Of a stretch of DNA of 20,754 nucleotides, positions 13,467 through 20,754 are shown in pieces. The DNA is taken from positions 1 through 20,754 of the IMG/VR virus record IMGVR_UViG_2778261639_000004. One strand, written 5' to 3'. Below the pieces are notes generated by a model. The model saw only the letters and a program-made list of their open reading frames with translations. It searched no databases and had not been told where the DNA came from. Each line of letters opens with the position of its first letter. Position 1 is the first letter of the stretch. The DNA is from a virus. Lineage: Duplodnaviria; Heunggongvirae; Uroviricota; Caudoviricetes. The position numbers were made by a program, and so were the translations under genes.

Positions 13467-13490
13467 TTGAGAAGTTACTTTGCATACCAT
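13467..13490 (+). promoter_or_regulatory. Candidate activator-dependent late promoter: ttgagaAAGTTACTTtgcaTACCAT
   Basis: Same 9-mer AAGTTACTT (13472-13480) with the same 4-bp spacing to a TAnnnT hexamer (13485-13490) as at 8434-8452; lies 29 bp upstream of the holin start. The -35-like TTGAGA is only 12 bp from the -10, so sigma-70 alone is unlikely to use it. Confidence 0.4.
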
Positions 13491-13518: not shown

Positions 13519-13848
13519 GTGCTTGACACACAGGAATTAGCTCCAGTTGCTATTGCGCTCCTGCTTTCAGTAATTGGTGGGATAGGCACGTTCCTGATGG
13601 ATGTCCGAGACGGTCGCCAGTCTGGCAATTTGTTGGGATTGGTTACGGAGATCTTTGTTGCAGTGACAGCTGGCGCGGTGGCGTACCTATTGGGGCAACA
13701 CGAGGGCTGGGAGTTATCAATTACGTACTTAATGGTAACGATAGCCAGCAATAACGGTCATGAGGTGATTTCAGGGATGAAACGAGTGAATATCGATAGC
13801 ATTCTGAATGTTCTTACAAGTTTGGTGAAAAAGGGAGGTGGGAAATGA
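13519..13848 (+). CDS. lydA: Holin (109 aa; P1 LydA-like)
   Basis: GTG start with AGGAGGGA upstream; two to three hydrophobic helices and a charged C-terminal tail (KKGGGK). First gene after the invertase, as I recall for P1. Confidence 0.65.
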   Translation: MLDTQELAPVAIALLLSVIGGIGTFLMDVRDGRQSGNLLGLVTEIFVAVTAGAVAYLLGQHEGWELSITYLMVTIASNNGHEVISGMKRVNIDSILNVLTSLVKKGGGK

Positions 13849-14288
13849 TTGGCTGGGGTGTATGCGCTCTTGCGTTAGCCTTAGCCGATCGCTATTTGCT
13901 AAAACGCAAGGACATCACGCATTTAGAACTTGGTGATGTGGAAATTAAACCGGGTTTCATCCGGGTGCCGTTCAAATACCGGTCTAAATTCCCGTTTTTG
14001 CGCGGCGCAACGGTCAGATATTGGATCCGCGATGTTCAGAAGCCGACGACAGTGATTGAAGGCGAACAACGTTGTCTGACGTCGGCTGAACAGGGCGAAA
14101 ACAGTGAATGGTTGTACATACCCACTGAATATATGGGTAAAGGAGAGCGACTGTGGAATTTCAACGTCATGGTTACGCATGGCGACTCGTTCATTAACCC
14201 GTTGTATCGGATTTTCCCTGTTACTCAGCAAATCCGCAGAAGTTACGTAATAAATCTCGCACAGGATGTGTCAGATGACGAAAAATAA
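13845..14288 (+). CDS. lydB: Antiholin or lysis regulator (147 aa; P1 LydB-like)
   Basis: ATGA overlap with the holin stop; single N-terminal hydrophobic segment; symbol by synteny and length. Confidence 0.55.
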   Translation: MIGWGVCALALALADRYLLKRKDITHLELGDVEIKPGFIRVPFKYRSKFPFLRGATVRYWIRDVQKPTTVIEGEQRCLTSAEQGENSEWLYIPTEYMGKGERLWNFNVMVTHGDSFINPLYRIFPVTQQIRRSYVINLAQDVSDDEK

Positions 14289-14877
14289 GTATGCAACGGT
14301 CGATTTTGACCAGGTTAATGAAAAGGGGCTGAAATCCCTTATCGCGGCGATCAATAAAACTGGTGTTGCGGTAATTGAGGTTGACTCCAGCAACCGCGCA
14401 ACAACGAAAGATGGCGTTAAAGTTAAAACCGCAAAGCTGGTTCTTAACGACGGACAAATTCTTGCCATACAGGTAAACGATACTGGCGATATATCGTCTG
14501 TGAAACTGAATGGAAAAGCTATTCCTAACGCTCAGTCGCCGGATATCAAGACGCTTGGTACCGTCATGGGACAGGCGGCCCGCAAAAACTCCGCAAAATT
14601 CCAGAAATCACTGATCGCCAAAGCGAAGCGTGTTGCCAATCCGGTAGACAAGAAACCGGCAGTTAAATCCAACTTTCAGCGCCTGCAAGAAGCAAAACAG
14701 CGGAATGCTCAGGTGGTTGCCGCTTATAAATCAGCGCAGAACTCGGTGTCTTTCAATCAACAGCAGATCACTGATTTGCGGGCGAAGCTGGATAAGGAGA
14801 CAGGCCGACTCAATAACGAAAAGGCCCGAAATGGCGAACTCAAACGCCGTCTTAAGCAACTGAAAGCAGGAAATTAA
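14275..14877 (+). CDS. hdf: Short paralogue of the downstream DarA-like protein (200 aa; P1 Hdf-like)
   Basis: ATG at 14275 with AGGA 8 nt upstream (the ATG at 14266 has no spacing to it). Residues ~50-120 align with residues ~140-215 of the next protein (…NDGQILAIQV… / …SDGQTISILF…; …RKNSAKFQK… / …EKNSAKFQR…). Confidence 0.6.
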   Translation: MTKNKYATVDFDQVNEKGLKSLIAAINKTGVAVIEVDSSNRATTKDGVKVKTAKLVLNDGQILAIQVNDTGDISSVKLNGKAIPNAQSPDIKTLGTVMGQAARKNSAKFQKSLIAKAKRVANPVDKKPAVKSNFQRLQEAKQRNAQVVAAYKSAQNSVSFNQQQITDLRAKLDKETGRLNNEKARNGELKRRLKQLKAGN

Positions 14878-14878
14878 C

Positions 14879-16798
14879 ATGGAACAGTTCAATATCAATA
14901 AAGGGGTGACGATCAAGCCTGGGCTTGACGTGCTTCCCCCGCCAGTGACTGATGATGAATATCGCGCATTAATGGCCGGTGAGGACCGCTATCTGATGAC
15001 GGAATCCAACACCCTGGAGGAAATCGAGGCTACGTTCTTCTATGACACGCCGATCCACTGGTGCGCTACGGATTTACTGGAGGCGATTAGTTCTACTCGT
15101 TTGCAGTTACACCGGACCATGCAGGCATTTGTCCGGGCATTGAACCATAAGCTGAATGGTACCGGAATCTCTGCGGGGAGTGATAAAACGGGGGATGTTG
15201 CCCAGAGCGGCGCGCGCGAGATCGGCGGCGCTGAAATTGGTCGGGCACGTAACGTTAACGGGCTGCCGGTCCTGCCAGCCATTATTCCGCTCAGTGATGG
15301 TCAGACTATCAGCATTTTGTTTCATAGCCCGACAGCGGAAAACCGGATCACCAATAGCGATACGCTGGTTGCTTTCCAGTTCTTACTGAATAAAAAAGAC
15401 GTTACTCACACCGTTGCTCCGATGAGTGGACGTGATATGACGCTGGCGCAGGTCACCATGAAACTTGCCAACCTTGCAGAGAAAAACTCGGCAAAATTCC
15501 AGCGTGCGCAGAAGAAGAAAAAAGCCCTGGTTGATGAAATAACCCAACTACAGGCTGACAGTGACCAGAAAGAGGATGCCATGAGCGACCTCGCGGATCA
15601 GGTGGCAGCGGTAGAAGGCCAGAAGGCAGATCTGGAGCAGAAAATTAACGCGGTTGCTTCGGAAGCGGATTCTCTTTATCAAGAAAATGAGCGTTTGCAG
15701 GCGGAGATTGATCAGCTCAATCGCACTGGTGGGCGCGATACCATTGCTCCAGCGGGGATGACTGGTGGGCACTCTCGCGCGCTGACGGATCGCCTTGCCA
15801 GTATCAAAAATCGTATGCATATGGACGGGGAAGCGACGCTCAGTAATGGTGCATCAATGAAGCAATTCATTGGGGATGGCGAAGGGTATATCCAGTTAAC
15901 CGATCCGGATGGCAGCGTATACATGATCAAGGCTAAATCCATACAGGGTGTGGACATGGCAGATGCGATCGGCAAGCTGTTTAAAGCCTATAAAGCGGGT
16001 GATGTATCGGAATATCTGGTCCAACCAGAAGAACATAAACCGGAAAACGTCGAACCTGAACCAGCGGAGGATACCGGTAGCTCTTCGCCTGAACCAGAAG
16101 TCTCTGTAGGTGCATATCGATATGCCCTGCAAATGCGTCCGGCGGCCCCTGGCGCAATACCTGAAGGTAACAAAGCGATTCTGCCGCGCCCTGATGAAGG
16201 TGATCCGTATTATGAATATGCACGCTACGGCATTGCTACTTACGATACCCCGCTTTCTGATCAGCAAATGAGTGAGTACGACCTGAAGTTATTGCCTCGC
16301 GAGGATTCTTTCGACTTCCTGGCGAAGACACTTACTAATGGTCCGTTTGGCAAATATGCACAAAAAGCTCTGGAGCTGGCCACCAGCTCACCAGACGAGT
16401 TCCGCGTAATGCTGAAGACTCAGTTTCAAAAAACTTTCCCCAATATTGCGTTTCCGGGGGGCGCTGGCACCGAGAAAATGGTGCAGAGCATGATCAATGC
16501 ATTGCAGGCCGAAGTCGGTGAGATTACTCAGCCAGAACCGGCCCCGGCACAGCCTGATGAAACGGTTAGCGAAGCAGATGCAGAGGCTAATAAAGCCATT
16601 GAATATCTCAATAACGTGATGGATATGCAAAGCACTGACATGGCGGAGATCCGTAACGCCCGGGGCAATGTCCGGGAAGCGATTGCAGCCCTTCAGGCTG
16701 CCGGACGTTTTGAGGAAAACGAAGAGCTGGTTAATGGCGCTGCTCGCCACCTGGCTGATCTGCTGGTAGCAATCCAGAAAGCGGGGGTAGCGGCATGA
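14879..16798 (+). CDS. darA: Antirestriction, capsid-internal protein (639 aa; P1 DarA-like)
   Basis: Long ORF starting 1 nt after the upstream stop; internal coiled-coil segment (QLQADSDQKEDAMSDLADQVAAVEGQKADLEQKINAV…); Pro/Glu-rich linker. Symbol by synteny, length and the Hdf paralogy; not checked against a database. Confidence 0.65.
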   Translation: MEQFNINKGVTIKPGLDVLPPPVTDDEYRALMAGEDRYLMTESNTLEEIEATFFYDTPIHWCATDLLEAISSTRLQLHRTMQAFVRALNHKLNGTGISAGSDKTGDVAQSGAREIGGAEIGRARNVNGLPVLPAIIPLSDGQTISILFHSPTAENRITNSDTLVAFQFLLNKKDVTHTVAPMSGRDMTLAQVTMKLANLAEKNSAKFQRAQKKKKALVDEITQLQADSDQKEDAMSDLADQVAAVEGQKADLEQKINAVASEADSLYQENERLQAEIDQLNRTGGRDTIAPAGMTGGHSRALTDRLASIKNRMHMDGEATLSNGASMKQFIGDGEGYIQLTDPDGSVYMIKAKSIQGVDMADAIGKLFKAYKAGDVSEYLVQPEEHKPENVEPEPAEDTGSSSPEPEVSVGAYRYALQMRPAAPGAIPEGNKAILPRPDEGDPYYEYARYGIATYDTPLSDQQMSEYDLKLLPREDSFDFLAKTLTNGPFGKYAQKALELATSSPDEFRVMLKTQFQKTFPNIAFPGGAGTEKMVQSMINALQAEVGEITQPEPAPAQPDETVSEADAEANKAIEYLNNVMDMQSTDMAEIRNARGNVREAIAALQAAGRFEENEELVNGAARHLADLLVAIQKAGVAA

Positions 16799-17160
16799 CA
16801 CTATCAGCTATTGAGTTAATGGATCTCAGCGATAAGTTGGATGCTCTGATGTCCAAAGCGGCTACCGCGAGTGGCATGGAGTTGCTGGATATCAGCGATG
16901 AAATTGACCAGATCATGCAACAGATGGGGTACGGCGCGTCCGGCGGCAGTAGTGGCGAGGAAAAACAACCTTCGGTACATGATGGTGTGCCAAAACTGGT
17001 TGCTGATTTCCTGGCTGATAAATTCGTCGATCAGAGCACTGATGCATTTATCGGTACGTTACAGGACTTGAGTCAATATGTTGGCACATACATCGACCTG
17101 GACCAGGTTAAACAGCACACGGCGGCATGGATAGCCGCCAACATTAAAGAGGCAGAATAA
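16795..17160 (+). CDS. ddrA: Small acidic protein (121 aa; P1 DdrA-like by position)
   Basis: ATGA overlap with the upstream stop; acidic with a Gly/Ser linker (GYGASGGSSGEE). Confidence 0.5.
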   Translation: MTLSAIELMDLSDKLDALMSKAATASGMELLDISDEIDQIMQQMGYGASGGSSGEEKQPSVHDGVPKLVADFLADKFVDQSTDAFIGTLQDLSQYVGTYIDLDQVKQHTAAWIAANIKEAE

Positions 17161-17172
17161 GGCGTAACAGGG

Positions 17173-20136
17173 ATGAGCTTAAGCGATCAGGTGGTAATGG
17201 CCACCAGTATAGAAACGCTGATCGAGCTGCTAAAAAACCTGCCCGATTACGGGCGGGTTTCGTATGTGGTGACAGCGAAGGGAGACGAGGTAAAAACAGC
17301 GTTTGATATCGTCGATGCCTCAGCTCTTTTGGTATCCAATACTCTGGACGGGAAAATTAACCCTGACTATCCCCAGGAACTTCAGCCGCGCGACCGGACC
17401 CGCGCATCCAGTCTTCTTCAGGTCAACCAGATATCCAAGGATTTGCGTCCTGCCCAGCTGACCGATTCCGGTTTATCCAGCCATGGCGCGCCGATAATTG
17501 GTGAGGACAATGCCGTTGAGTCAGGTAATGGACGGACCATGGGGATCATCAAAGCCTATCAGGACGGCAATGCGGATCGGTATCGTGAGTACCTGATTGA
17601 TCATGCGACCGAATTCGGCATACGACCTGAAAAGGTTGAATCAATGGCGGCTCCGGTACTGGTGCGCCGCCGGTTAACTAAGATTGACCGCGTTCAGTTT
17701 GCCAAGGACTCAAATATTTCTGATCTTCAGGAAATGGCAGCCAGTGAAAAGGCTTTTGTTGATGCTGACAGCATAACTCCGGCGATGATGGCGCTGTTTA
17801 ACCCATCAGAAAGCGGAGATCTGCTTAGCCGCAGTAATGACGCGTTTATTCGCGGATTCATGACGCAAGTTGGTGCCACACAGGCTGCTGGCCTTGTAAC
17901 GGAAGATGGGCGACCAACACGGCAACTTGTTGACCGTATACAAAACGCGATCTTTGCCAAGGCATATAAGGATGCGCGCCTGGTAAGAATGGTTGCAGAA
18001 GAACCTGATCCGGATATGCGTAATGTTCTGACGGCGCTTAATGCGGCAGCCAATGATTTTGTCCAGATGCAGGCTTTATCAGGAGAAGCGCACAAGCAGG
18101 CTGTGACAACTATTGTTGATGGTATTGAGACAGCGGATAGTCTCGATAAAAAGGCGCTGGCGGCATTGAAAGATGCGGTAGACCTGGTAAGGCAATCGAA
18201 GGAGTCAGGCCAACATATTACCGATGTTATTGCTCAGGGGGATATGTTCAGCGAAACAGCCCCGGAAGTGAAAGCTCTCGCGTTGTTCATCGTCGCGAAT
18301 AACCGTAGCGCGAAGCGTATGGCCACCGCCTTTAAGTTGATGGCGCAACGTATCAATGATGAGTTACAGCACCAGGGCCAGGCGCTTGGGGATATGTTTG
18401 GCGGCGGTGATGTGTCGTTACAGGATATCCTTCGCCAGGTATCTCAGGAACTGGAAAACGAAGGTATGCAAGGGATATCCGGCGGTAGTTACAACGGTGT
18501 TGCTCCATATACCAGCTTGCTATTACATCGGGCATCCGGCATCAAAGACATTATTCATCTGATCAGGCTGCTATCCCGCACCGATCCCCAGGATGAGCAG
18601 CTTGTACAAGTGCTTGCGCATTTTGTCCGAATGCCTGTTGCCGACGTAAAAAAATGGTGCCGATTATTCGGTATCAGCAATTCGTTACTTCGCGGATTGT
18701 TAAATCACGCATCCTCCCTTGGGCGCGACGGCTTTGATGAGATAGCGCAGGCGATAAAAAACGGAGATATGCCACCAGCTATTGACTGGTTTTCCATTCG
18801 CCCAACCAGGGTGAAAGCATTCCTTAGCGCGGCGCATTCGGCATCACCATTGGCAGAAATGGTTCAGAGGTTGTCGCTCATATTCACAGACCATACCGCG
18901 TTGGGTGATCTGACTCTGGACGAGATGAAAGAAGCCTCCATTCAGTGGGCCGATCAACAAAATGAGGTTAACTCTGACTTCTTGCCAGCATTCAGGAAGG
19001 CCGTTAGTAAAGCGGATGATGCCCGTGGAATTCTGAAGGCATTTAAGGCATTGCAAAGTCGTGTTAATAAACATGTCGGTGATATCGATGGGGTAACGGC
19101 GGAAGGCCGGGATATCCTTAAAGAGCACGGCATAACGCCAGAGTTTATTGATGAGATCAGGACTGATATGCAGCGTGAGGTCGTATCGTCCCTGCAAATC
19201 GTAGCCAGAGCGTTGGCGGATGCTAATCCGAAGAGTGCGGCCATTGTTAACCGGGTTATTGGTGATATTGAAGCATCGGAGGGCATGGGGGCACTGAAAC
19301 TCTTCCTTTCGCGAGCGTTTAATCCTAACGGCAATATTCTCCCTGGCATTATTGGTGAGGCTAAAAGGTATGTCAGTGAAGAAGAACTTGAGCAGCTTGA
19401 CCAACTACTTAAGCGATTCTCATATAACCCGCAGACACGCTGGCAAATGAATCAGCGAAGTATGGGTTCGGTCCACGAGAAAGTGTTATCTGCCATGAAC
19501 AGTGCGATCGCAAACTCATCCGTATCTGAAGAAAAAGCTCTTGAGTGGGCCGACTCTTTTATCACGGAAGAAGTGGAAGAAGCCCGCGCTGGACAGAATG
19601 GTGGGATAGACCTGCGCAAGGAACTTGCTGATATTTATCGCCTGACCGGCGGTAAAATTTCGACCTTATCAAAGGTGGTTCACCACCAGGGAAGGGCATA
19701 TGCAAATCTTAATGGTGTTGTTGCTGTCAATTTGAACGATGAAAATGCAAGTGCACTGTGGCACGAGCTGGGTCATCATCTTGAGTACAGTAACCCTGGT
19801 TTGTTAGAGAAAGCCCGGTCATTCCTGAAGGCCAATGTTGAAGGGGATAAGCCATCTTTCGTTAATATCGGTGGGCGTGGCAAGCCTGAATGGTGCTTCA
19901 GATCTCGATTGAGTAATATTTATATGGCGAAGGTATACCCGCCAGCCTCAGTGAGTAACTCCGGGAAAATTCGGCAGAAAGCACCGACTATTTCAAAAAC
20001 ATCAGCAACGGAAGTATTCTCTATGGCTCTTCAGTTGTATCATGACAAAGAGGCCGCTGCCGCATCACTGATGAATGGTGACGGATTGCTGGAACTGTTA
20101 TTAGGTGTGGCAAAGGAGCTAAATAATGCAGATTAA
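17173..20136 (+). CDS. ddrB: Large protein (987 aa) with a C-terminal HExxH motif (P1 DdrB-like by position)
   Basis: Long ORF on the operon strand. HELGH at residues 864-868 (nt 19762-19776) is the zinc-metallopeptidase consensus; no other domain recognised by eye. Symbol by synteny only. Confidence 0.55.
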   Translation: MSLSDQVVMATSIETLIELLKNLPDYGRVSYVVTAKGDEVKTAFDIVDASALLVSNTLDGKINPDYPQELQPRDRTRASSLLQVNQISKDLRPAQLTDSGLSSHGAPIIGEDNAVESGNGRTMGIIKAYQDGNADRYREYLIDHATEFGIRPEKVESMAAPVLVRRRLTKIDRVQFAKDSNISDLQEMAASEKAFVDADSITPAMMALFNPSESGDLLSRSNDAFIRGFMTQVGATQAAGLVTEDGRPTRQLVDRIQNAIFAKAYKDARLVRMVAEEPDPDMRNVLTALNAAANDFVQMQALSGEAHKQAVTTIVDGIETADSLDKKALAALKDAVDLVRQSKESGQHITDVIAQGDMFSETAPEVKALALFIVANNRSAKRMATAFKLMAQRINDELQHQGQALGDMFGGGDVSLQDILRQVSQELENEGMQGISGGSYNGVAPYTSLLLHRASGIKDIIHLIRLLSRTDPQDEQLVQVLAHFVRMPVADVKKWCRLFGISNSLLRGLLNHASSLGRDGFDEIAQAIKNGDMPPAIDWFSIRPTRVKAFLSAAHSASPLAEMVQRLSLIFTDHTALGDLTLDEMKEASIQWADQQNEVNSDFLPAFRKAVSKADDARGILKAFKALQSRVNKHVGDIDGVTAEGRDILKEHGITPEFIDEIRTDMQREVVSSLQIVARALADANPKSAAIVNRVIGDIEASEGMGALKLFLSRAFNPNGNILPGIIGEAKRYVSEEELEQLDQLLKRFSYNPQTRWQMNQRSMGSVHEKVLSAMNSAIANSSVSEEKALEWADSFITEEVEEARAGQNGGIDLRKELADIYRLTGGKISTLSKVVHHQGRAYANLNGVVAVNLNDENASALWHELGHHLEYSNPGLLEKARSFLKANVEGDKPSFVNIGGRGKPEWCFRSRLSNIYMAKVYPPASVSNSGKIRQKAPTISKTSATEVFSMALQLYHDKEAAAASLMNGDGLLELLLGVAKELNNAD

Positions 20137-20431
20137 AATCGCAGCGCCATTAGGCGGAGATGCCATTATCGAATTTGATGATAATGAAGAAGTTTCCGGG
20201 CGTTTAAGCATTATCTCCGGTGACATTACCGAGGACATGATCGCTGAAGCCATAGCTGGGGCAAATCCCAATAGCTATATGGGATTCGTTAACACCCTTG
20301 ATGCTCCCGCAAGTGATGTTCTCCGAACGCTGCATCTTTACGCTGGCTGGTTTGTCGATTGGCCAGCAGTAGAGGGTGGCGATGAGGACGACGATGATTT
20401 TGGGGATCATGTAGACCAGATCGTATATTAA
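20126..20431 (+). CDS. Very acidic small protein (101 aa, about 22 Asp/Glu, C-terminal GGDEDDDDFGD)
   Basis: ATG with AAGGAG 8 nt upstream; overlaps the 3' end of the upstream gene by 11 nt; last gene before an AT-rich non-coding stretch. Confidence 0.5.
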   Translation: MQIKIAAPLGGDAIIEFDDNEEVSGRLSIISGDITEDMIAEAIAGANPNSYMGFVNTLDAPASDVLRTLHLYAGWFVDWPAVEGGDEDDDDFGDHVDQIVY

Positions 20432-20754
20432 CTCCCTGATAGTGCACAAATAATCTGTTCTGATATGTTAATTGTGTACTTAAAGTAAACGCGTAGTGGC
20501 TTGCTTTAGGTTATGGAAGCAAGCTATTGCCTAATATGTTAGATCAAAAAATTTTAATTTTTGCGTTTCGCTCACCACATATTGAACACTTTAGCCGATC
20601 TTTTTATTGTTGCAGAGTCAATCCTGAAGCTACATATTGTTTAATATCTCTTCGTCATTGCATATTCAGAGGGTAAAGATATACACATACTAAAATGAAT
20701 TGGCTTAGCTCGTTATTAATCAGAATTCGATGAGACTACTCCATTTTAGGGAAT

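Follow-up and report, generated by a model that had tools for sequence, protein, structure and literature searches.

The acidic protein Hxr/OdaA at the end of the P1/P7 darA operon: a candidate partner of the zincin-like domain of DdrB

We analysed a 20,754-nt stretch of DNA from a Caudoviricetes virus (IMG/VR record IMGVR_UViG_2778261639_000004, positions 1 to 20,754; the whole stretch is referred to below as the window), and in particular the small acidic gene at the end of its darA operon, named hxr in P1 and odaA in P7 and called hxr throughout. The window is a P7-like phage-plasmid: its last 1255 nt are 99.8% identical to P7 and 95.5% identical to P1 across 92% of their length, and related sequence occurs in 488 plasmid records, chiefly from E. 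coli. The Hxr protein of the window is 100% identical to P7 OdaA, differs from P1 Hxr at a few positions and by one Asp of its aspartate run, and matches PHROG 2292 (E = 1.1e-58, residues 1-101, on a 105-position profile). The P7 record gives the gene as odaA, function not known, in P1 it is hxr, P1_gp021, and in the 1998 record of the darA operon (AJ000741) it appears as ORFVIII, with an annotated terminator next to it. The surmise of the initial annotation that this may be a known P1 gene is thus borne out, the gene being named but without established function. The features of hxr and of the ddrB gene that it follows are given below.

17173..20136, + strand: ddrB ('prt' in P7), 987 aa; residues 36-167 of DdrB form a DdrB-type ParB domain
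19564..20133, + strand: C-terminal zincin-like HExxH domain of DdrB, ~190 residues
19762-19776, + strand: HELGH of DdrB, residue 864
20113..20118, + strand: AAGGAG Shine-Dalgarno sequence of hxr, within the ddrB 3' end, with the ATG 7 nt further
20126..20136, + strand: overlap of hxr start and ddrB end, exactly 11 nt
20126..20431, + strand: hxr (P1 name) / odaA (P7 name), 101 aa, ATG start, TAA stop
20372..20428, + strand: acidic C-terminal tail of Hxr, residues 83-101
20381-20398, + strand: DEDDDD of Hxr, residues 86-91, coded by the (GAY)n Asp run
20441-20480 and 20493-20530, + strand: two stem-loops 3' of the hxr stop, where P1 record AJ000741 annotates the operon terminator region

hxr is a real gene and no chance open reading frame (ORF), since it is intact in 78 of 78 P1-like loci, matches PHROG 2292, and keeps its position and overlap in distant relatives. 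The initial annotation had described a strongly acidic 101-aa protein with about 22 acidic residues; we count exactly 22 (15 D and 7 E) against 3 basic ones (1 K and 2 R), giving an isoelectric point (pI) of 4.05 and a net charge of ~-19 at pH 7, and no other product of the window's 18 + strand ORFs with 90 aa or more is as acidic. Three other points of that description hold equally: the C-terminal DEDDDD run lies at residues 86-91; the 987-aa ORF of the HExxH protein stops at 20136 and the small ORF starts at 20126, an 11-nt overlap; and the gene stands at the operon end, with two hairpins directly 3', the P1 terminator annotated there, and downstream genes that differ between relatives. Both hairpins are strong (z = -3.5). 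Simple scans found no T-run terminator near hxr and no promoter-like site in 19800-20754, and there is no Rfam match in or 3' of the gene.

Across the 78 readable P1-like loci of IMG/VR, residues 1-82 of Hxr are near-invariant and variation falls mostly in the tail. The Asp run is 4-8 residues long, changing through in-frame gains and losses of GAY repeats, and alternative tails occur, yet 77 of the 78 proteins still end in IVY, FVY, IIY or LLY. A few database entries (P0005, P0012) are frameshifted in or before the Asp tract, e.g. ...WPAVEVAMRTTTMIW..., and these frameshifts could be sequencing errors or repeat slippage. Versions of the locus from Rosenbergiella, from a metagenome and from a Logan assembly, whose proteins are only 30-45% identical, keep the order lydB-hdf-darA-ddrA-ddrB-hxr and the same 11-nt ddrB/hxr overlap, with different genes past hxr. 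Judged from the overlap and the Shine-Dalgarno sequence, translation of hxr is presumably coupled to that of ddrB.

Near and moderately remote relatives of Hxr are few. The wider Hxr family comprises ~45 clusters of ~95-119 aa, unnamed and without a Pfam domain, mostly from 80-100 kb Enterobacterales contigs of P1-like and related phage-plasmids, and its members always lie 3' of a DdrB-like gene. Invariant positions of the core family are G53, V65-L66-R67, W75 and W79-P80; acidity is retained (pI 4.05-4.3), and the more distant members mostly end in IVN or VVN. Hxr has no Pfam family even at E <= 1 and no matching NCBIfam or PADLOC model, and a profile search of PDB sequences returned chance matches only (E >= 0.58). 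Matches to FG-GAP/VCBS repeat proteins in an exhaustive HMMER search (P0020, P0025, P0027-29) were judged compositional: the repeat GDVTGDGVAEIVTGAGPGG aligns to SGDITEDMIAEAIAGANPNS, and the score adds up across many repeats. In some relatives, P0015 (184 aa) and P0040 (187 aa), the whole Hxr core is tandemly duplicated within one polypeptide, with the poly-Asp tail retained by the second copy only.

A monomeric AlphaFold2 model of Hxr, built on a 21-sequence alignment, has a mean predicted local distance difference test (pLDDT) score of 76, with 81-89 in the core except for a weaker loop at residues 21-30. The predicted core (residues 1-82) is an alpha/beta arrangement of the order strand-strand-strand-helix-helix-strand, in which the two helices lie 17 residues apart, and the tail (residues 83-101), which holds 9 of the 22 acidic residues, is predicted to be disordered. 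A fold search with this model found no similarity to Ocr, ArdA or any solved structure.

The main finding concerns what lies upstream of such genes. The conserved unit that precedes hxr-like genes is the HExxH domain, with the motif RAY..LWHExGHxxE..E..Y..Y..[ST]E[VI]xSM[GA]LQ; in P7 this domain has a pI of 9.2 within an overall acidic DdrB. The DdrB domain has been classed as a zincin-like metallopeptidase of polyvalent proteins, and DdrB is reportedly processed, probably by its own peptidase domain (Iyer 2017, PMC5512222). In a survey by tblastn and pattern scans of genomes and IMG/VR, scans seeded with P7 gave mostly near-identical P1-like loci, and a Desulfovibrio seed reached diverse ones. 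The domain forms the C-terminal end of large proteins in Vibrio Ackermannviridae phages, in many IMG/VR contigs and in loci resembling prophages from Desulfovibrio, Bilophila, Caldilineaceae, Verrucomicrobia, Streptococcus and Anaerovibrio. N-terminally these proteins vary (ddrB-ParB, MuF, portal+MuF, ART-PolyVal+LPD3, PBECR2+ParB), and the HExxH domains align across all lineages.

We counted linkage over 39 non-redundant loci, taking as background the remaining + strand ORFs of these loci with 150 aa or more and scoring the next gene as a partner if it encoded 70-130 aa with pI <= 5.2 and started at ~-40 to +12 nt. A small acidic ORF lies directly 3' of the HExxH gene in 30 of the 39 loci, compared with 11 of 72 background ORFs (Fisher p = 2e-10, an optimistic value for phylogenetically dependent loci), and where such an ORF is lacking, a longer acidic one mostly takes its position. 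The linkage holds in phages without other Dar genes: hxr goes with the HExxH domain of DdrB rather than with the Dar system as a whole.

The partners fall into 33 clusters and 14 superclusters that are mutually unrelated by BLASTP, and they diverge fast relative to the HExxH domain. They nonetheless often end alike. A C-terminus of the form hydrophobic-[Y/F/N] is found in 13 of the 33 partner clusters and in 4 of 184 background ORFs (p = 3.5e-9), as in ...QIVY (P7), ...EQRIY (Desulfovibrio), ...NPRIY (Verrucomicrobia), ...PDVIY (Streptococcus) and ...PGRIY (Anaerovibrio), and the final 20 residues of the partners are net acidic (p = 1e-8). Relatives and analogues of Hxr therefore share an acidic tail with a constrained C-terminus. 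Common ancestry of Hxr and the other partners is possible: in an hhalign comparison the Hxr family aligns end to end with the Vibrio VAP7/YC partners over 83 columns (E = 1.4e-3, probability 17.5%), and a non-significant Foldseek match of the Hxr model in BFVD (rank 34, template modelling scores 0.44/0.48) is the gene directly 3' of the HExxH protein gene of Vibrio phage VAP7. The Hxr profile compared with the VAP7 protein alone gave no significant match, and an iterated hidden Markov model search did not reach past the Enterobacterales family, its best outside match being the VAP7 partner at E = 0.12.

Several of the surveyed loci depart from the common layout. In L101 (2-2881), L141 (445-3432) and L152 (1-3357), three distant contigs of prophage or viral origin, a single open frame spans portal, MuF and DdrB-type HExxH domains; these may be portal-MuF-peptidase fusions, or else stops or frameshifts that went unrecognised. 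An apparent HK97-type prohead protease comes after the small acidic ORF of L101. One HExxH clade (L097, L098-L100, L105-L107, L111, L113 and L124) carries ~170 aa extra past the peptidase domain, and several of its loci encode, downstream, a long acidic protein (285 to >1000 aa) whose N-terminus resembles the small partners. In L112 (2269-4916) two successive genes share the peptidase-domain tail ...DPEYFKLIVG... with no small partner between them, an arrangement that suggests the HExxH gene was duplicated in tandem.

hxr belongs to the late operon, of which it is the final gene (LPdar-lydA-lydB-hdf-darA-ddrA-ddrB-hxr), and LPdar is the sole promoter annotated at the operon head. The elements upstream of ddrB are as follows.

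13472..13490, + strand: LPdar late promoter, identical to the element annotated in P1, 29 nt 5' of lydA
13519-13848, + strand: lydA
13845-14288, + strand: lydB
14266-14877, + strand: hdf/odaE
14879-16798, + strand: darA
16795-17160, + strand: ddrA/odaC

The ddrB gene of the window has 987 codons compared with 995 in P7 (AF503408) and P1. Eight codons (SGGLFESV) are deleted in frame between two SGG repeats at ~18477, residue ~435, and 6 more substitutions occur; the source of the window is therefore a P7-like element other than the reference P7 genome. A 122-aa antisense ORF within ddrB (17727-18095, - strand) corresponds to the P1 annotation iddB. Similarity to P1 ends ~220 nt past hxr (window ~20652-20754), beyond which lie isaB and IS1 in P1 and the porin gene nmpC in P7; other relatives carry toxin-antitoxin pairs, an Arc-like gene or a CHAP-domain gene past hxr. 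Given these varied genes, the end of the darA operon borders a variable cargo region.

These observations lead us to favour, at a probability of roughly 0.5, the reading that Hxr serves DdrB's zincin-like HExxH domain as a dedicated, immunity-like partner, probably as its inhibitor. The partnership itself we consider likely, and its inhibitory direction is a tentative choice. Two indirect cues speak for binding, the conserved C-terminal motif and a complementarity of charge between domain and partner. Transcribed with the late LPdar operon and starting inside the ddrB end, hxr would be made at a ratio of ~1:1 to DdrB. The alpha/beta core of Hxr (residues 1-82) may dock on the mildly basic peptidase domain, and the flexible acidic linker could then bring the C-terminal hydrophobic-hydrophobic-Tyr carboxylate into or near the active-site cleft, so that the peptidase would be restrained, or its activity timed, in the producing cell. 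DdrB would subsequently be processed to its reported 76-kDa form and packaged, and Hxr left behind.

The closest precedent is the class of immunity genes of MuF toxins and other polyvalent proteins (Jamet 2017, PMC5576092; Iyer 2017, PMC5512222), which, like hxr, are small, fast-evolving, domainless, co-directional ORFs directly 3' of a gene with a C-terminal effector domain. Small ORFs follow MuF toxin genes in 89% of cases versus 25%, and were read as immunity genes on that basis, an argument of the same type as our 30/39 versus 11/72; one fifth of the MuF toxin genes have metallopeptidase ends (PMC5576092). Our set of HExxH proteins likewise includes MuF proteins. Unlike MuF toxins, P1 DdrB has a ParB-type N-terminal part, and its peptidase, proposed to process DdrB itself, is not known to be a toxin; neutralisation by Hxr is a proposal made by analogy. 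We know of no description, for MuF-type immunity genes, of a shared tail that is acidic and has a C-terminal hydrophobic-Tyr/Asn. Neither the tail motif nor hxr is mentioned in PMC5576092 or in Iyer et al. (PMC5512222).

For the proposed role of the tail two further likenesses may be drawn. The flexible Asp/Glu-rich tail of Hxr, with its hydrophobic-aromatic-COOH end, resembles those of E. coli SSB (...DDDIPF) and T7 gp2.5 (...DDF), acidic tails whose terminal aromatic residue docks in basic/hydrophobic pockets of partner proteins. A corresponding binding mode for Hxr would be an analogy only, and, unlike SSB and gp2.5, Hxr has no oligonucleotide/oligosaccharide-binding (OB) fold and many members of its family end in Asn. 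The mechanistic picture closest to the putative inhibitory step is that of potato PCI and leech LCI, which insert a C-terminal tail into the active site of metallocarboxypeptidases; there is no homology, tail insertion by Hxr is purely conjectural, and, unlike the targets of PCI and LCI, the zincin-like domain of DdrB is uncharacterised.

A number of points weigh against this assignment. What the counts establish is linkage, from which we infer that Hxr binds and regulates the DdrB domain, most likely as an inhibitor, though its effect could be that of an activator or a chaperone. The loci are phylogenetically dependent, which makes the p-values optimistic, the evidence being at most as strong as they indicate, and small genes are common in phage genomes. 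The partners of Vibrio phages are neutral or basic (pI 6-9.6), and the weak inverse relation between the net charges of peptidase domain and partner is marginal (Spearman -0.42, p = 0.046). By sequence, homology of Hxr to partners outside the Enterobacterales is weak or undetectable, and the pattern may be in part analogy. A more specific idea, in which the Hxr C-terminus imitates a cleavage product of DdrB, failed a covariation test. It drew on DdrB residues 691-693, IVN (19243-19251), the tripeptide at the C-terminus of many Hxr relatives: a fragment ending at Asn693 would measure 75.7 kDa compared with the reported 76 kDa. DdrB homologues do not conserve IVN at this position, no covariation with the partner C-terminus is seen, and the agreement is probably a coincidence. 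Knock-down of hxr by CRISPR interference (CRISPRi) leaves plaque formation on a permissive host intact (PMC10695390), so the phage survives unrestrained DdrB on a laboratory host of this kind. The gene was outside the knock-out set of Gonzales et al. (PMC9024508), and the literature found on hxr/odaA consists of gene tables, with no experiment on restricting hosts among it.

Hxr is not among the P1 virion proteins that liquid chromatography-tandem mass spectrometry (LC-MS/MS) detected, a list that includes the 13-kDa DdrA (PMC9024508). Its only tryptic sites are K4, R26 and R67, yielding one ordinary and two very long peptides, one of them highly acidic, and its absence from the virion proteome is therefore moderate evidence at best.

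The alternative that fares best casts Hxr as a folding or packaging chaperone without an inhibitory role, which would bind the new C-terminal domain, keep DdrB soluble or present it to the DarA/Hdf-primed procapsid, and then be released. It draws on exactly the same linkage evidence as the partner reading, and both the missing virion entry and the fixed order in which Dar proteins enter (PMC12810830) would suit it. We nevertheless consider it unlikely, because it leaves unexplained the convergence of unrelated partners on an acidic tail with a hydrophobic-aromatic end, and why the pairing with the peptidase domain persists when the N-terminal, capsid-targeting part changes.

That Hxr is instead a seventh packaged Dar component, injected with DdrB and working in cis, through its acidic tail, on the DNA-protein complex as it enters, appears improbable to us. 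It is co-expressed with six packaged Dar proteins, and its three tryptic sites mean that tryptic LC-MS/MS could miss it; the six recognised Dar components exclude it, however (PMC9024508, PMC12810830, PMC12707154), and the virion list that lacks it contains DdrA, with peptide 5-26 expected to be detectable were Hxr abundant.

The initial annotation had proposed a DNA mimic or anti-defence factor, that is, a free protein of the Ocr/ArdA type titrating DNA-binding defence proteins such as type I restriction enzymes or BREX. Its account of the gene, the acidity, the overlap and the P1 identity stands, but the mimic mechanism finds no support and we regard it as improbable. Hxr does resemble Ocr (T7 gp0.3) and ArdA in being small, very acidic and encoded by a mobile element in an anti-restriction setting, here the Dar operon; 22% of its residues are acidic, the net charge is -19, the acidity persists throughout the family, and because known mimics have diverse folds a dissimilar fold does not exclude one more. 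However, comparison by sequence and fold gave no match to Ocr, ArdA, ArdB or PDB chains, and much of the charge (9 of the 22 acidic residues) sits in a disordered tail whose length varies. Ocr and ArdA are produced at once upon entry, whereas Hxr is late and peptidase-linked, with a late promoter only and no internal promoter predicted, and its absence from the virion list would leave it missing when incoming DNA is attacked. Classical co-infections showed that Dar shields only the DNA packaged with it (PMC12707154), which speaks against a diffusible, enzyme-titrating mimic, expected to act in trans. Finally, the gene tracks the HExxH domain even where other Dar genes are lacking.

The current database label of P1 Hxr, an Xre-like transcriptional repressor, can be dismissed: its one source is a note in the P1 record of 28% identity across ~58 residues to an Xre repressor, and there is no helix-turn-helix family in Pfam even at E <= 1, a pI of 4.05 and a charge of -19 are ill-suited to a DNA-binding protein, the strand-rich predicted fold (E-E-E-H-H-E) has no helix-turn-helix, and no repressor is among the structural neighbours of the model. 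The annotation is probably wrong; this unfounded 'repressor' label has stood on hxr since 2004, has spread to hundreds of P1-like plasmid records, and is corrected here.

As a partner of DdrB, Hxr represents a fresh case of the known class in which an effector domain is followed by a small downstream partner, and the recurrent acidic tail with its C-terminal hydrophobic-Tyr/Asn may be the one new feature. A broader proposal, which we offer as speculation that is unlikely to hold, is that the DdrB-type zincin domain and the small acidic protein form a widespread, undescribed effector-inhibitor module of capsid-delivered phage proteins. Such a module would span Proteobacteria, Firmicutes, Desulfobacterota, Chloroflexota and Verrucomicrobia, and the flexible acidic tail of the partner would bring its C-terminal hydrophobic-Tyr/Asn carboxylate into the active site of the peptidase. 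In that case hxr would count as an unrecognised seventh P1 Dar gene, timing DdrB processing and so adjusting DarB-dependent protection from EcoB and EcoK.

The Dar proteins of P1, a workhorse phage, are the textbook case of injected anti-restriction proteins, and hxr is missing from every Dar model. Its assignment to DdrB bears on the role of the DdrB peptidase and on why loss of ddrB lowers the restriction sensitivity of P1. If the gene-pair pattern holds, it would provide a partner annotation for one metallopeptidase clade in phage polyvalent proteins, and it hints at a mode of inhibition in which a tail plugs the active site.

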